A stretch of DNA of 64,000 nucleotides from positions 781,704-845,703 of the forward strand of contig OZ220477.1 in NCBI GenBank assembly GCA_965116015.1. The letters are read 5' to 3'. The position numbers were made by a program, and so were the translations under genes. Within the stretch, counting starts at the first letter, position 1. Each line of letters starts with the position of its first letter. The notes below the pieces were generated by a model, which did no database searches, was not told the origin of the DNA, and worked only from the letters and a program-made list of their open reading frames with translations. The DNA is from Dehalococcoidia bacterium (GTDB taxonomy: Bacteria > Chloroflexota > Dehalococcoidia > Lucifugimonadales > Australimonadaceae). Below, piece by piece: positions 3,724-19,201 of this stretch.

Positions 3724-5009
3724 CCTCCCCCTCCCAACCCCCGACCCGCCCGCGGAACAACAACCAGGCGCCCCTCCGCAACCCCGCCGTCCGAGGCCTC
3801 GCCAACCTCTACGCAAGCACGCTCATCTCCGGCGCCGGATGGGCAATGGTCCTCCCCATCACCCCCATCCTCGCCAACCACTTCAACGTCTCCCACGGCG
3901 TCGCCGCCCAAATCATCACCGCCTACGCCCTCGGACGCTTCTTCGGCATCCCCGGCGCCGGCGTCCTCATCGACCGCCTCGGCTCACGCAGAATCCTCAT
4001 CGCAGGCCCAACCCTCGTCCTCGCCGGAGCCCTCAGCGGCGCCGCAACCCCGCTCTTCACCCCCATCCTCGCCGCCGCACTCCTCATCGGCGTCGGCGAC
4101 AGCCTCTGGGCCCTCGGACGCGAAATAGCCGGCATCGACCTCGTCAACAACAACCATCGCGGCAGAGTCCTCAGCGGCTTCCACGGAATCCACTCAGGAG
4201 CCCTCGCAATCGGACCCCTCGCCGGCGGCCTCCTCGCCGACTCCCTCAACTTCCACGCAACATTCCTCGCATTCGCCGCCCTCTCCGCAATCGCCGTCGC
4301 CCTCGGATTCTTCGCCCACGACACCCGCCAACCACCCTCCCAAAACCCTCCCGCCCCAGCGCCCCGCCCCATCAACCTCCCAACCCGCGCGCGCAACCTC
4401 ATCGCCCTCTTCAACGAAATCAAACCCGAACTCCGCCTCACCTACTGGACATTCGTCTTCGCCACATTCGCCGGCTTCACCTTCCGCATCACCCTCCAGA
4501 GCATCCTCCCCCTCTACGCCGACGAACAACTCAGCCTCTCCGCAACCCAGATCGGCGCCCTCTTCTCGCTCTCAGGAGCCGTCGTCCTCGCTATGATCCT
4601 CCCCGCAGGCTTCGTCCTCGACAAACTCGGACGCAAATGGGGCACAGTCCCAAGCACACTCCTCCCCGGAGTCGCCTTCCTCCTCGTCCCCCTCGCCGAC
4701 TCCTACCTCCAACTCGCCATCCTCGTCAGCCTTATGGCCCTCGCCAACGGACTCTCCCTCGGATCCCTCGCCGCAAGCTCCTACGACATCCTCCCCAACC
4801 ACGTCCGCGGCCGCCTCCAGGCATTCCGGCGCACCGCCGCAGAAGTCGGCGGCGTCGGCGCCCCCCTCCTCGGAGGCGTCCTCGTCAACAGCGTCAGCCC
4901 CGCCGCCCCCTTCGTCGCCTACGCCCCCATCCTCCTCGCCGCCGGCCTTATGCTCGCATTCGCAGCCCGCGAAACCCTCGTCAAACCCGGAGCCCCGCCC
5001 TCCGCCTAA
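3720..5009 (+). CDS. MFS transporter
   Basis: 429 aa and multi-TM, with a GRFFGIPGAGVLIDRLGSRR loop motif. The GTG start overlaps the upstream stop (GTGA). Confidence 0.8.
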   Translation: MTSPSQPPTRPRNNNQAPLRNPAVRGLANLYASTLISGAGWAMVLPITPILANHFNVSHGVAAQIITAYALGRFFGIPGAGVLIDRLGSRRILIAGPTLVLAGALSGAATPLFTPILAAALLIGVGDSLWALGREIAGIDLVNNNHRGRVLSGFHGIHSGALAIGPLAGGLLADSLNFHATFLAFAALSAIAVALGFFAHDTRQPPSQNPPAPAPRPINLPTRARNLIALFNEIKPELRLTYWTFVFATFAGFTFRITLQSILPLYADEQLSLSATQIGALFSLSGAVVLAMILPAGFVLDKLGRKWGTVPSTLLPGVAFLLVPLADSYLQLAILVSLMALANGLSLGSLAASSYDILPNHVRGRLQAFRRTAAEVGGVGAPLLGGVLVNSVSPAAPFVAYAPILLAAGLMLAFAARETLVKPGAPPSA

Positions 5010-5198
5010 CGCGCCAGACCCCCTGCCCCCCCAAACCCCCAGCGCCAACCCGGCGCCACAGAGACCATCGCCCCCAGCAAAGAGCAGCATCCGCCAGAGC
5101 GCCGCCCTTAACCCCAACAGCGGCGCCCACGCACACCCCCTCTCCCTCCGATCCAGAACCCCCGCCTCAACCGCAGCGCAACGATGCGAAAAAAACAA

Positions 5199-5274
5199 TG
5201 GCGCCCCAGACAGGACTCGAACCCGTGACCATCTGCTTAGAAGGCAGCCGCTCTGTCCACTGAGCTACTGGGGC
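5199..5274 (-). tRNA. tRNA-Arg (anticodon UCU), CCA encoded
   Basis: Reverse complement folds by hand: acceptor GCCCCAG/CTGGGGC, D stem GCTC/GAGC, anticodon loop CTTCTAA, T arm ACGGG-TTCGAGT-CCTGT, 3' GCCA. Length 76 nt. Confidence 0.9.
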
Positions 5275-5375
5275 CCAATTCGAATATAGTTACACCATCG
5301 AACACGGTCAAGCGCGCCCAGTCGCGCCCTCGCCGCAAACAACCAACCTCCCCCTACGCAAAAAAGGACGCCCTA

Positions 5376-6158
5376 ATGACATTCAACTCCATCCGATTCG
5401 ACGCCCACGGCCCCCTCGCCATCCTCACCCTCGACCGCCAGAACCGACTCAACGCCCTCAGCCGCGAACTCATAACCGAACTCCAACTACTCATCACTAA
5501 CCTCGAAACCAACCACGACATCCGCGTCATCATCGTCACCGGAGCCGGACGCGCCTTCTGCGCCGGCGCCGACATCAAAGAACGCGCCGAAAATATGAAC
5601 GACCTCTCCCTCGCCCGAACCTCCGCCGTCATCTCCCCAACCTTCCGGCGCCTCGAACAACTCCCACAGATCAGCATCGCCGCCATCAACGGCGTCGCCG
5701 CCGGAGGAGGCCTCGAACTCGCAATGGCCTGCGACCTCCGCATCGCCGACCCCGAAGCCCGCTTCGCCCTCCCCGAACTCACCCTCGGAATCCTCCCAGG
5801 CGCCGGAGGAACCCAGCGCCTCCCACGACTCATCGGACCCGCACGCGCCAAAGAAATGATGCTCTTCGGCTCATTCATCGACGCCCCAACTGCCCTCAAC
5901 TGGGGACTCATCAACCACATCGCCCCAGCCGCCAACCTCATCGAAGAAGCCCGAACCTGGGCCGCGCGCCTCCTCGAACTACCCCCCCTCTCCCTCTCAA
6001 ACATCAAAAACGCCGTCAACATCGCAATGAACGTCGACATCGACGCCGGCATCCAATACGAACAACGTTGCTCCGCCCTCCTCGCCCTCACCGACGACCG
6101 CCGCGAAGGCCACGCCGCCTTCGTCGAAAAACGCAAACCCCGCTTCACCGGCCGCTAA
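5376..6158 (+). CDS. Enoyl-CoA hydratase/isomerase (crotonase) family
   Basis: 260 aa with VIIVTGAGRAFCAGADIKE and GGGLELAMACDLRIA motifs. AAGGA RBS upstream. Confidence 0.85.
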   Translation: MTFNSIRFDAHGPLAILTLDRQNRLNALSRELITELQLLITNLETNHDIRVIIVTGAGRAFCAGADIKERAENMNDLSLARTSAVISPTFRRLEQLPQISIAAINGVAAGGGLELAMACDLRIADPEARFALPELTLGILPGAGGTQRLPRLIGPARAKEMMLFGSFIDAPTALNWGLINHIAPAANLIEEARTWAARLLELPPLSLSNIKNAVNIAMNVDIDAGIQYEQRCSALLALTDDRREGHAAFVEKRKPRFTGR

Positions 6159-14716: not shown

Positions 14717-14956
14717 CCTCCTCGCCTAACCGGCAGAATCCCCCGCATCCTACCACCCCCCTCAACCCCCTGGCGTAACGCCCTCGCCCCATCCCGCCTC
14801 GAACCCTCCTCAACACCATCGGAACCCACCGCGACCGCCAAGCGCTCCCCCTTCAAAAACCTCCTAACCCGAACAGAACACCCCTCCCCCAACAGACCCA
14901 TCGCCTCCCAGCCCGGATAGCCTCCTCGCACGGAGCCTCGCGATGCGCGTCAACGG

Positions 14957-15122
14957 TCGGAATGTGGAGCGAACAAGGAGAGCGCCGCTTGCGCGGCGGC
15001 AAGCGGAACGACTAGGGGAAAGCGGAGTGCATTCCGAGAGGGTAGCGGTGGGGTAGGGGTAGGAGAACCCAGAATTCCGATAAGCCGGAGTAAACCGAGC
15101 GGCGGCCGCAAGGAACAGCCGC
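14957..15122. other. G-rich, hairpin-dense intergenic patch (candidate structured RNA or relic), strand undetermined
   Basis: Nested perfect stems: TCGGAATG (14957-14964) with CATTCCGA (15030-15037); CCGCTTGC (14985-14992) with GCAAGCGG (14999-15006); GCGGC (15099-15103) with GCCGC (15118-15122). Composition is opposite to the surrounding DNA. Confidence 0.35.
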
Positions 15123-15179
15123 ATACCCAGCGCCCCCCGAAACGCGCCCGATGATGCCACCGACGCCTGCCCCCCACCC

Positions 15180-17117
15180 TCAATGCGTGTCGAACAACTC
15201 CTGATACCGCGCAATCGCCCCCAACACAGCCTCCCGCTCCGCCCCCGTCGGCCTCCGCGGATCACGCGCCTTCGGCAAACGCCCCAACTTCAGCATCGCC
15301 GCGCGCAGCAGCGCCCGAGCCTTCGTCGCATCAAGATTGCTCCCCTCAATCGTAAGATCATTCGGCGAAGAGGGCAGCGCGCCCTCCGGATCTCCACGAC
15401 CAACACGCACAACCGGCATCCCGCTACACGCCGCTATCCCCAGTGCCGCCAACTGACTCGGCAACGCCGAACCGCTCCCGGCAGCCGCCTCCAGCACAAA
15501 CCCGTGGAACACAGGACTCCCCGGCTCCAGCGACGCCTCCTGCTCAGCCCCACGCGCGATCCGCGCCATAATATCCACCTCAACATCAGGATCCGCCGAA
15601 TCCTCCTCCGCCATATAGTGCCCGTACTTCACAATATGAACCGGAGCTATCGCCGACCCCAACAGCGAACCATCCTCCCCCTTGATCCGAACCGACGCCG
15701 TCCCCCCGCTATCCCCGAACTCCTGAAACACCGCCTCCGACGGCAAACGCCTCACCGCCAGCGCCGAACTCCCCGTCGTCCTGTACGCCGGCTTGTGCCA
15801 GATCCGCGTCTCCGCACCCGCAGCCCCAAGAGCTCCCCCATGACCCCCAGTCGCCCGGTAGCCCCCAGGACGCGCATCACCCTTCTTGAACGACCGCGCC
15901 GAAAACACCTGCTCATCCACGATCCCCACCGCCCCCAAACCCGCCCCAAGACCCGACGCGATATACCGCGCCGCATCCACGATATTCCTGTCCCCATCAT
16001 TCGACAGCTCCCCATGCGGACGCTGCGACGACACCCCCACGAACGGCAGCGCCGTATCCAGCGTCACACTCAACCAATACAACGTCTCCTCGATATGCGG
16101 ACTCCCCTCCAGCCAGATGAACCCATCGTGCCTCCCCGAATCAATCGTCTCCTGAACAGCATTGAACGCCCGCGCCATCGCCCAATTCGGCGGAAACTTC
16201 CCGACAGCCCGCGGACTATACGGAAAGAAATCCCTCCCCGCCCTCTCACCCTGCCCCGTATACCCCGCCGGAGGCAGCGCCCGCACGAAATCGAAATCCG
16301 CCACCCTGTCCAGCGCATTCGCCCCCCCGTCCGAACCCCGGCCATACACCCCCCGATCGATATCCTCGAACACCCGCGACGCATCCGGAAAGAACGACTG
16401 ACGCCCCCCATACCCAATGCTCGCATCCCGAAGATCCCCCTCCTCGAACGGACGCCCCTCCGCCGAACCATCCGCCCGCCGCGCCACATACGGCAACAGA
16501 TACGCCCCATCCTCAGGACGCAGCTCCACCTCGTAGAACGGCTTCCCGTCGTCGTGATACGCCTCCCGCGCATCCTCCTCCAGCGGATGCGCGCTGAACT
16601 TCCGGATACGCACCCTCACCGGCTCATAAAGCGTCTGCGCCGCCAAATGATCGAACCGCCCCTCCAGCCCGGGCTCCCCCTCCAACCGCCCCTTACTGCT
16701 AGTAACCAACGTAGGCGAATTCGCAACAGTCGACCGAGGCCCCGAAAACACCGCTATCCGCGGCCTCATATTCCCCTTCCCCCAGTACGCATACACCCGG
16801 CGCAACTCTTCTTCGTAGAACGCGGCATCCTCAGCAGGGGTCGTTCCGCTGTACCCCCTCAGCGCCCTTGCTAGTTCAAAGAACTCCTTGCTAGGTCTGC
16901 CTTTGCCTTTCGCGACCACTACCGCGGACAGCATCGGCCGCCCTGACGCGACCTCCAACCTGCAGATGCACCCTAGCTCTGGTCCAATCCCCCTGGCAGT
17001 CATTCCCACCTGAGGCGCAACTCCTCCGTAATTGGCTTTCCCCTGTCTCTTGGCCAATCCGATTAGCACATCCCTAAGCTCACTAAGCCTGTCCCTCATC
17101 ACCGTCTCCTTGCCCAA
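15180..17117 (-). CDS. Asparaginase-family protein with extra ~115-aa N-terminal (wHTH-like) module
   Basis: 645 aa. From residue ~120: IAVFSGPRSTVANSP...WLEGSPHIEETLYWL...FSARSFKKGD, resembling asparaginase motifs (GGTI / HGTDTMEET / K) in divergent form. The N-terminal module is paralogous to the 17201..17557 product. Confidence 0.65.
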   Translation of the reverse strand: MGKETVMRDRLSELRDVLIGLAKRQGKANYGGVAPQVGMTARGIGPELGCICRLEVASGRPMLSAVVVAKGKGRPSKEFFELARALRGYSGTTPAEDAAFYEEELRRVYAYWGKGNMRPRIAVFSGPRSTVANSPTLVTSSKGRLEGEPGLEGRFDHLAAQTLYEPVRVRIRKFSAHPLEEDAREAYHDDGKPFYEVELRPEDGAYLLPYVARRADGSAEGRPFEEGDLRDASIGYGGRQSFFPDASRVFEDIDRGVYGRGSDGGANALDRVADFDFVRALPPAGYTGQGERAGRDFFPYSPRAVGKFPPNWAMARAFNAVQETIDSGRHDGFIWLEGSPHIEETLYWLSVTLDTALPFVGVSSQRPHGELSNDGDRNIVDAARYIASGLGAGLGAVGIVDEQVFSARSFKKGDARPGGYRATGGHGGALGAAGAETRIWHKPAYRTTGSSALAVRRLPSEAVFQEFGDSGGTASVRIKGEDGSLLGSAIAPVHIVKYGHYMAEEDSADPDVEVDIMARIARGAEQEASLEPGSPVFHGFVLEAAAGSGSALPSQLAALGIAACSGMPVVRVGRGDPEGALPSSPNDLTIEGSNLDATKARALLRAAMLKLGRLPKARDPRRPTGAEREAVLGAIARYQELFDTH

Positions 17118-17200
17118 GAATCTCTAACGAAGATCGCCCTCCCCCTTAGTTCCCCCAGTACTCACCGACCCTGCGCACTCACGTCGCCTTACCCTCCCAC

Positions 17201-17557
17201 CTAGTTCCCCCAATGCTCATAAACCCGGCGCAACTCCTCCGCGTAGAACGCAGCAGCATCAGCATCGGTCGTTCCGCTGTACCGCCCCAGTTTCTTCGCC
17301 AGCCTGAAGAACCCTCCGCCAGGTTTGCCTCTGCGTTCCGAGATTACTACGACGGACAGCATCGTCCCCCCCTCACCCCTGCAGATGCGCTCCAGCAGAG
17401 GGTCAAGTCCCAGGGAACCTATCCCCAAACGCCTCGCGATATCCCCGTAGTAGATGGTGCCGCGTCGCTTAGCCTTTTCGATTAGCACGTCTCGAACAGC
17501 GTCGAACAGCTCCTCCCCGAGATTACTAAGCCTCTCCATCAGACTATCCCTCATCAC
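17201..17557 (-). CDS. Stand-alone paralog of the N-terminal module of the 15180..17117 protein
   Basis: 118 aa, about 50% identical by eye: ...YYGDIARRLGIGSLG..LLERICR...MLSVVVISERRGKPGGGFFRLAKKLGRYSGTTDADAAAFYAEELRRVYEHWG versus ...NYGGVAPQVGMTARG...MLSAVVVAKGKGRPSKEFFELARALRGYSGTTPAEDAAFYEEELRRVYAYWG. Confidence 0.65.
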   Translation of the reverse strand: MMRDSLMERLSNLGEELFDAVRDVLIEKAKRRGTIYYGDIARRLGIGSLGLDPLLERICRGEGGTMLSVVVISERRGKPGGGFFRLAKKLGRYSGTTDADAAAFYAEELRRVYEHWGN

Positions 17558-17589: not shown

Positions 17590-18048
17590 CTACCGACCCT
17601 TAGCCTCCCGCCGCGCCGACTCGTAGAACCCCAAAAACTCATCCACCCCCACCGACGCTATCGTCTCCCCCACCAACTCCAACGGAAGATCCTCCAAACG
17701 CCTGAACCGAACGCACGACTTCCCCATATCCAAACGCCTCCCCGTCGCCCGGTACGCCGACACAAACCGCTCGTGCCGCTCCGCATCCGCATACACCGTA
17801 TTCAGGTACAGCGCCATATACCGCTTCTGCGACGCCAGAGCCGCCAGCTGCAGCGCCTGCCCGTTATACGTAACCCCATACCGGCTCAACGGCACAACAT
17901 ACCCAATCATCCCGAACTGCATACACTCCTCGTACCCCTCCGGCAGATGCTCCAGCACAACCCGACGCACCGCCTCCAGCGCATCCCTCCGCTCCCCCGG
18001 AAGCTCCGCCAGATACTCCTCAACCGTCGCCGCCCCGCTCTTCACCAT
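17590..18048 (-). CDS. DUF1801 (YdhG-like) domain protein
   Basis: Internal start MVKSGAATVEEYLAELPGERRDALEAVR with GGAGG RBS. The N-terminal extension of ORF 17590..18156 is unlikely to be real. Confidence 0.65.
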   Translation of the reverse strand: MVKSGAATVEEYLAELPGERRDALEAVRRVVLEHLPEGYEECMQFGMIGYVVPLSRYGVTYNGQALQLAALASQKRYMALYLNTVYADAERHERFVSAYRATGRRLDMGKSCVRFRRLEDLPLELVGETIASVGVDEFLGFYESARREAKGR

Positions 18049-18146: not shown

Positions 18147-19201
18147 GTGCCCCCAATGCTAGTAATCGACGCCGACTGCCACGTCATCGAAAACGACCAA
18201 ACCTGGGAATACCTCGACCCCCAAGACGCCCACTTCAAACCACAACCCGTCGACAACCCCGACCGGCCTATGTGGATCATCGACGGACGCGCCCGCCAGC
18301 GACCCTTCGGCACAACCCCCACCGGAGCCCCCTCCGAACAACTCTCCGGCTTCTCCCGAACCTCCTTCCAAACCCGTTCCCTCTCCGACATCGACGCCCG
18401 CCTCGCCCATATGGACGAACTCAACGTCGACATCCAAGTCCTCTACCCCACCATCTACCTCACACGCATCACCGAACGACCCGAAGTCGAACTCGCCCTC
18501 GCTAAAAGCTACAACCGATGGATGGCCGACGTTTGGGCCCAGAGCAAAGGACGCCTCCGATGGGTCGCCGTCCCGCCCCTCGACTCCATCAACCAAACCC
18601 CAGCCATCCTCCGCCACGCCAAAAACAACGGCGCCGTCGGCGTCTTCATGCGCGGATTCGAAGGCCCCCGACGCCTCACCGACACCTACTTCGACCCACT
18701 CTACAACGCCGCCCTCGAATACGACCTCCCCATCGCCATCCACGCCGGATGCGGAAACCCCGCCTTCGCCCAACTCGCCGACGGCGACGCCTACGCCCGC
18801 AACAAACTCCCCGTCATCAGCGCCTTCCACTCCCTCATCTTCAACCGAACACCCCAACGCTTCCCGGACTCCGCTTCGCATTCGTCGAAGTCGCCGCCAA
18901 CTGGATCCCCTACATCCTCAACGACCTCCACCGACGCGTCCAACGCGAAGGATGGACCCTCCCCAACAACGTCCTCGCCGAAAACCAAATGTACGTCGCC
19001 TGCCAAACCAACGACGACATCCCCTACATCCTCCAGCGCGCCTCCGAAGACCACCTCATGATCGGCTCCGACTACGGCCACTCCGACACATCAAGCGAAC
19101 TCGAAGCCCTCAGATCCCTCAGAACCAGTGGACGCCTCGAACCCCGCATCGTCGACAAAATCCTCTCCCACAACCCCGCCCAACTCTACGCCATCAACTA
19201 G
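18147..19201 (+). pseudogene. Amidohydrolase-2 family gene with a 1-nt frameshift (or assembly error)
   Basis: ORFs 18147..19061 and 18518..19201 are N- and C-terminal halves of one protein. The join is at ...IFNRTPQRFP / GLRFAFVEVAANWIPY, and one base is missing at CCGG around 18864-18867. Confidence 0.7.

Follow-up and report, generated by a model that had tools for sequence, protein, structure and literature searches.

An open reading frame joining a winged-helix-like module to an asparaginase-fold enzyme, with a free copy of the module upstream, in a Dehalococcoidia genome

Closest described systems

Metabolic-type enzymes joined to a small helix-turn-helix domain are known from NrtR (Nudix plus winged helix-turn-helix, wHTH), BirA, and PutA. 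The present analysis concerns a locus with a similar layout in a Dehalococcoidia bacterium (assembly GCA_965116015.1, contig OZ220477.1, positions 781,704 to 845,703). The whole stretch of 64,000 nucleotides (nt) is called the window hereafter, and positions refer to it. An in-frame open reading frame (ORF) on its minus strand (15180-17117) joins a module of ~110 amino acids (aa) to an asparaginase-fold body, and the gene directly upstream encodes the same kind of module in free-standing form. The arrangement differs from NrtR, BirA, and PutA in that the window-type fusion is confined to two genomes and does not define a family, and in that its DNA binding and regulatory action are putative.

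For the enzyme body, the closest described enzyme is Escherichia coli L-asparaginase II (EcAII), which consists of the domains PF00710 and PF17763. The body is predicted to have the same two-domain fold, with a Thr after the first strand and a Lys at the position equivalent to K162. It is longer (~530 versus ~330 aa), an additional ~140 residues, modelled at low confidence, separate the first motif from the second, and it has Ser-Pro in place of Thr89-Asp90. The window body additionally carries the N-terminal module.

For the module, the described proteins that come closest are those of the MGMT/Atl group (PF01035), such as S. pombe Atl1 and archaeal Ogt. Both begin with a helix that is followed by a (T/Y)Y-x-x-(I/L)A helix-turn-helix, and both continue with P-x-x-x-x-V-V and then G-x-x-G-(F/Y). 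HMMER and hhalign alignments place the invariant Tyr of the module opposite the helix-turn-helix Tyr of MGMT. The module differs by a P-(M/L)-L-S-A segment and by an extra long C-terminal helix that ends in a conserved Trp. Small proteins of jumbo phages (PaBG S5VMJ6, Dickeya phage JA13, Noxifer, and 201phi2-1) have fold and size in common with the module; they differ in being phage-borne, uncharacterised, and without a link to an asparaginase-type enzyme. Literature searches found no paper describing an architecture of module plus asparaginase.

Anatomy of the fused and free genes

Read from its TTG codon, the fused ORF encodes 645 aa. The likelier start is the ATG at 17099, which yields a 639-aa product and is the gene call on record (P0001). 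The first ~114 residues are 48% identical to the free module (BLASTP, E 3e-28), and the match stops at ...RRVYAYWG in the fused and ...RRVYEHWGN in the free protein. A first-pass annotation of this DNA had described a fused gene with an adjoining free copy, and the ORFs are as it stated. Our tentative preference is for a lineage-restricted translational fusion of a winged-helix-like accessory gene to an intact enzyme, in which the free copy would pair with the fused copy and the whole would have a regulatory role. The fusion is rare and local, and it is probably recent.

The two module genes start in similar contexts. A Shine-Dalgarno (SD)-like element, GGAGGAGG, stands upstream of the free gene, and the SD and start context of the fused module, GGAGACGGTGATGAGGGA, resembles it, with GGAG..CGGTGATGAGGGA common to both. 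The fused module retains the family-conserved Y, E, GRP-MLSA-VV, P, FF, LA, E, V, and W positions. Three residues of the free module are off-consensus: G64, T65, and V69 stand where R, P, and A are found in the family. Between the two lies a spacer of 83 nt, and within it a remnant, gagtactgggggaactaag, repeats the 3' end of the module gene (compare the end of the free copy, gagcattgggggaactag). Since the spacer contains this third module fragment, the region arose by tandem duplication. In DNA sequence, the two complete copies form a mosaic, with ~85% identity over the last ~85 nt (the 3' third) and much greater divergence in the middle, a pattern that points to partial gene conversion.

At the junction the protein reads ...YAYWGKGN followed directly by MRPRIAVF (DNA, TGGGGGAAGGGGAATATG). 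The hexamer GGGGAA occurs there twice in tandem, and both frames remain in phase whether this 6-nt duplication is present or absent. Homologues whose sequences were read start with MxKPRIAVFSG, or more fully MxKPRIAVFSGPRST. The coordinates are collected in Table 1.

Table 1. Features of the module-enzyme locus in the window.
Feature	Position	Strand	Description
Free module	17201..17557	-	118 aa from GTG 17557 or 117 aa from ATG 17554 (P0121)
Spacer remnant	17145..17163	-	gagtactgggggaactaag, reads EYWGN and stop; read directly from the sequence
Fused module	16770..17099	-	Residues 1-110 of the 639-aa product
Junction	16767..16785	-	TGG GGG AAG GGG AAT ATG (W G K G N M)
Asparaginase-superfamily body	15180..16769	-	529 aa plus stop; ~530-aa family with invariant Thr and Lys and near-invariant Ser-Pro
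DUF1801 gene	17590..18048	-	152 aa from the MVKSG start; Pfam PF08818, E 5e-13

The enzyme body and its family

The asparaginase-like nature of the body, proposed at first pass, is supported by profile and structure comparisons. It matches Pfam Asparaginase (PF00710) with 43.1 bits (cut-off 22.5) over residues 316-414, which correspond to profile positions 64-162 only; the match to Asparaginase_C (PF17763) is weak, at 17.5 bits and under the cut-off of 34.6. HMMER aligns asparaginases from the PDB to residues ~320-460 of the body, with EGSPH opposite HGTDT and FKKGD opposite the K162 region. The AlphaFold2 model matches EcAII in Foldseek with E 6.6e-16 and a template-modelling (TM) score of 0.80 normalised to the target. 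Its full-length mean predicted local distance difference test score (pLDDT) is 71: the C-terminal half is good, residues ~126-300 are poor, and the N-terminal half is of low confidence. The alignment for the module is shallow, so the packing of the two domains is not reliably readable from this model. By NCBIfam, the body is not a type II asparaginase proper (TIGR00520, 48.3 versus 314.3 bits; AnsB NF008304, 31.2 versus 506), and it scores far under the cut-offs of both the type I and type II models.

The body belongs to a large family of its own. A search of 5.8 billion proteins returned >2,300 homologues, and the 120 best are almost all ~530 aa long. The few of these 120 whose source is named come from Chloroflexota/Dehalococcoidia, Nitrososphaerota, Binataceae, and Bathyarchaeia. 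The pairing with a module, of which the first-pass annotation knew no described case, is rare: two of the 120 carry one, namely the window protein and P0002 from locus L001. The gene is also patchy, being found in 25 of the 251 genomes sampled in the order. Its neighbours vary by lineage and form ordinary contexts, and no constant partner was seen among the distant homologues inspected.

The catalytic motifs had been called divergent at first pass. The difference from known asparaginases is real (EGSPH against HGTDT in the HMMER alignment), and it is a family-wide feature rather than degeneration of this copy within its own family. In a 52-member alignment that includes the window protein, all 52 have Thr in FSGPRST, Ser in EGSP, and Lys in FKKGD, and 50 have the Pro; the invariant residues are Thr124, Ser333, and Lys406 in the window protein. 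The Asp of the Thr89-Asp90-Lys162 triad is replaced by Pro across the family. The Thr of FSGP(R)(S/A)T follows strand 1 of the model, in a segment that HMMER does not align to known asparaginases, and would be the equivalent of EcAII Thr12. Because Thr, Ser, and Lys are invariant and Pro nearly so, the divergent motifs mark a conserved, probably active subfamily and not decay of the window copy. The enzyme part of the window protein is intact, with all family-conserved residues kept, and is most likely still an amidohydrolase.

The module family

The module itself is without a match in Pfam, NCBIfam, PHROGs, and PADLOC. Neither Pfam nor NCBIfam has a model that covers it. A word-based search with the free module matched only itself; the family was revealed by an exhaustive search with a profile built from four modules against 1.84 billion representative proteins. 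This search recovered 3,284 clusters at E<=1e-3, of which 1,024 at E<=1e-10, mostly free-standing proteins of 105-120 aa. The consensus reads ...(T)Y..(I/L)A...G...L..I...E...GRP(L/M)LSAVVV.K...PG.GFF.LA..LG....FW..EL.RV...W, with one Tyr invariant.

Seven of the 150 top family members contain two to three modules in tandem. Other members have the module at the N-terminus of a NERD (nuclease-like) plus UvrD-like helicase or of ankyrin repeats. In P0132 a pair of modules follows an NrtR-type winged helix, and elsewhere a module stands behind a ribbon-helix-helix (RHH) antitoxin-like domain or behind hydrophobic stretches that, judged by eye, appear to span the membrane. Variant architectures are found in P0196, P0172, P0132, P0133, and P0122-P0126. 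Free modules elsewhere sit among varied, unrelated housekeeping genes and have no constant partner.

The AlphaFold2 model of the free module (pLDDT 93.2) consists of a long helix, a helix-turn-helix, a short hairpin, and a long C-terminal helix. In a structure comparison with a viral library, the small jumbo-phage proteins match this fold with TM 0.70-0.76 at 17-26% identity. In the PDB, prominent top hits of Foldseek are MarR-type repressors and entries for Ogt/MGMT and Atl (TM 0.35-0.47, with 0.43-0.47 to Atl), none of them significant, and a weak profile match in the PDB is 1mgt (E 0.43).

The module had been likened at first pass to wHTH domains of the MGMT/Atl type. The winged-helix-like fold stands, and the best, if weak, matches are indeed MGMT/Atl proteins; formal membership fails. 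PF01035 is not matched by any of the four modules, and the family member P0122 reaches 17.8 bits against a cut-off of 27. Marginal NCBIfam hits to MGMT occur in 4 of 82 family members (E 0.006-0.05), and an hhalign comparison with 28 MGMT domains of related genomes reaches a probability of 28.7%, confined to the first 34 columns. The PCHR (MGMT) or PWHR (Atl) pocket motif is absent from the module consensus, which has G-R-P-(L/M)-L-S-A-V-V instead. The JGI labels three members of the family 'Atl1'. Taken as a whole, the module is a winged-helix-like domain with many different partners, and possibly a distant relative of the Atl/MGMT C-terminal domain.

Relatives, synteny, and composition

The DUF1801 gene is the conserved upstream neighbour of the enzyme gene, with synteny in L001, L005, and L007. 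In L005 (body 84-85% identical) and L007 (82%), DUF1801 is followed directly by the 530-aa gene, which indicates that the modules of the window occupy the former DUF1801-enzyme spacer. Two genomes of the same genus (G002 and G005) have a free module between DUF1801 and the enzyme, ~90 nt before an unfused enzyme gene. The second fusion lies in L001, where DUF1801 is followed by a free module of the G002/G005 type, two small ORFs that by eye resemble HicB antitoxins, and then a 633-aa fusion. Hence, both fused loci have a free paralogue upstream. Across 61 relatives, the module is present in 11, and every copy is free-standing except the fused one of the window.

The junction in L001 is built differently. 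The last Trp codon of the module stands in place of the enzyme ATG (...CDRW followed by AKPRVAVF; TGG GCC AAG...), and with this ATG gone the L001 enzyme can only be made as a fused protein. There is no long homopolymer at this junction, which comes from a separate assembly. The fused modules of the window and L001 share only about a third of their residues, and both have the conserved positions and ~110 codons without a stop. In the module tree, the two window copies pair (97/90) and stand beside the free modules upstream of the enzyme in G002, G005, and L001 (92/72, moderate); the fused module of L001 is placed apart from them. A single clade of the window pair and the L001 fused module is not rejected by an approximately unbiased test (p 0.34), and the two fused genes are weakly sisters in the body tree (88/58). 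Together, these results allow one origin or two, and the two fusions with their different junctions are possibly independent.

Codon composition sets the modules apart from their surroundings. Third codon positions of the body, the DUF1801 gene, and the SDR gene have G at 0.63-0.72 and A at 0.01, and those of the two modules have G at 0.42-0.45 and A at 0.12-0.19. The break coincides with the fusion junction. In relatives without strand skew, GC content at third positions (GC3) is 0.64-0.76 in the module versus 0.90-0.98 in the flanks. The module DNA is compositionally foreign at every locus compared, which fits an accessory gene that moves or gets replaced. This composition suggests that the module copies of the window are younger than their flanks. 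The weak strand bias of the modules does not by itself establish recent arrival, since the GC3 of modules is atypically low in unskewed relatives too.

The genome as a whole has an extreme strand bias. Its GC skew, in 20-kb bins, reaches +/-0.45 in a sawtooth that the AT skew mirrors. Abrupt rises occur near 80-120 kb, 840-880 kb, 1340-1500 kb, and 1940-2120 kb, and after each the skew falls nearly linearly from ~+0.4 through 0 to -0.4, most clearly over 1.52-1.92 Mb. This shape is unlike the usual single origin/terminus step.

The remaining neighbours in the window are metabolic: besides DUF1801 and SDR, they include glyoxalase, MFS, and amidohydrolase genes. A 464-nt spacer (14717-15179) separates the enzyme gene from the SDR gene on the same strand. 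On the plus strand, an Amidohydro_2-like gene at 18147-19201 is split over two frames near 18860, either as a pseudogene or through an assembly indel, which bears on the trust to be placed in the G-run lengths at the junction. Small cassettes surround the enzyme gene in relatives (L007:2415-2905 and 4986-5640; L001:7441-7967) and are absent from the window. They contain a HigB-like toxin with HTH_3, HepT with a faint NTP_transf_2 match, and the HicB-like small ORFs of L001. The region around the enzyme gene seems to attract insertions of small mobile genes.

Origin of the fusion and competing explanations

The favored course of events would begin with a small winged-helix-like accessory gene, perhaps distantly related to the DNA-binding domain of MGMT/Atl, that lodged between the DUF1801 gene and the gene of an asparaginase-superfamily amidohydrolase in one Dehalococcoidia genus. 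In the window genome, two diverged copies would have been partly homogenised by gene conversion, and the proximal copy would have lost its stop codon and so run into the enzyme's own start codon. The frequency of two to three tandem modules in the family suggests that the module works in pairs, and the free copy may accordingly pair with the fused one. Such pairing would supply the enzyme with an accessory unit that binds nucleic acid or a ligand. The most plausible role would be local regulation, for example feedback on the DUF1801-module-enzyme string, by analogy with enzyme-plus-wHTH regulators.

Several observations weigh against this proposal. With regard to the putative DNA binding, the net charge of the family spans -5 to +7 around a median of 0; the PDB fold matches of the module are not significant (best Foldseek E 0.4), and its MGMT/Atl and MarR matches are all below significance. 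Fused examples number only two, and G003 of the same genus and many other lineages have the enzyme without a module, so that the module is not needed for enzyme function. The usual ATG of the enzyme (16769-16767) is kept at the junction behind a G-rich SD-like stretch, from which a plain enzyme could still start, and the fusion could then be neutral. Moreover, the in-frame join rests on the lengths of two G runs (G5 and G4 at 16771-16783) in this assembly; one G less in either run would give ...YWG(R/K)GI and a TGA overlapping the ATG, that is, two genes.

Two alternative readings concern the fusion itself. In one, the fusion is real in the DNA and a neutral accident: translation of the enzyme would start mainly at its own ATG, and the longer protein would be a tolerated by-product that has no separate function. 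We consider this doubtful, yet nearly as likely as the regulatory fusion. Beyond the retained start region, it draws on the rarity of the fusion, on an enzyme that works without the module elsewhere, on the foreign composition of the module DNA, which is thus probably younger than its flanks, and on a spacer and neighbours that gather small cassettes in relatives (HigB/HTH_3, HepT/NTP_transf_2, and small ORFs). An accident is harder to reconcile with L001, where the enzyme lacks its ATG and exists only as the fused protein. Both fused modules have also kept their conserved positions and ~110 stop-free codons at about a third identity, and in both genomes the natural C-terminus of the module abuts the natural N-terminus of the enzyme within 0-4 residues. 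In the other reading, a one-base homopolymer error at TGGGGGAAGGGG has merged two translationally coupled genes in the assembly, a module ending ...YWG(R/K)GI-TGA and an enzyme that starts from the overlapping ATG. The ATGA overlap that would result is a common arrangement of coupled genes, the genome is a single 2.39-Mb contig, and at least one gene of the window is frameshifted (amidohydrolase_2 at about 18860). Such an error would have to add a base, but the frameshifts seen in the window each lack one; the frames stay in phase with or without the GGGGAA duplication, and a bona fide fusion exists in L001. We regard such an artefact as rather improbable.

Two further readings assign the pair a more specific function. 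The first-pass annotation had suggested a sensor/effector or toxin/antidote pair, which in a defence-type system would make the asparaginase-like body the effector. A free-plus-fused layout at both fused loci, family members fused to a NERD-helicase or an RHH antitoxin-like domain, the occurrence of the family in jumbo phages, and toxin-antitoxin cassettes nearby in relatives are in keeping with such a role. We nonetheless give it very little credence. No PADLOC family matches the fused or the free protein at E<=1, and Pfam and NCBIfam find no toxin or antitoxin domain in either. The supposed effector is a conserved stand-alone enzyme of Chloroflexota, Nitrososphaerota, and others that occurs in ordinary contexts, the neighbours in the window are the metabolic genes listed above, and free modules elsewhere lack a constant partner. 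Co-occurrence across genomes likewise lends it no support, given the sparse distribution of module and enzyme, the module-free enzyme of G003, and the varied neighbours. It is also improbable, if slightly less so, that module and amidohydrolase are true functional partners in a new two-part system, in which an Atl-like reader of the base-flipping type would direct or control an asparaginase-fold amidase. A free module beside the enzyme in two genomes of the same genus, together with two fusions that have different junctions, would mark a system of this kind. If this were the case, the amidase might be aimed at an amide linked to nucleic acid or protein, or the enzyme might be controlled by such a ligand.

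Significance for the two families

The link between module and enzyme is local, with one genus and two fused genes, and may be an evolutionary accident; its reach is accordingly modest. Given the extreme strand bias of this genome, the sharp change in codon composition where module and enzyme meet makes a useful internal clock. The module family, with its 3,284 clusters and no Pfam model, would merit a family description of its own. If the fusion is real and functional, it would offer a first handle on two uncharacterised families together: a widespread asparaginase-fold enzyme of 530 aa whose catalytic triad is of a Ser-Pro variant, and a very common winged-helix-like protein of ~110 aa that also occurs in jumbo phages.

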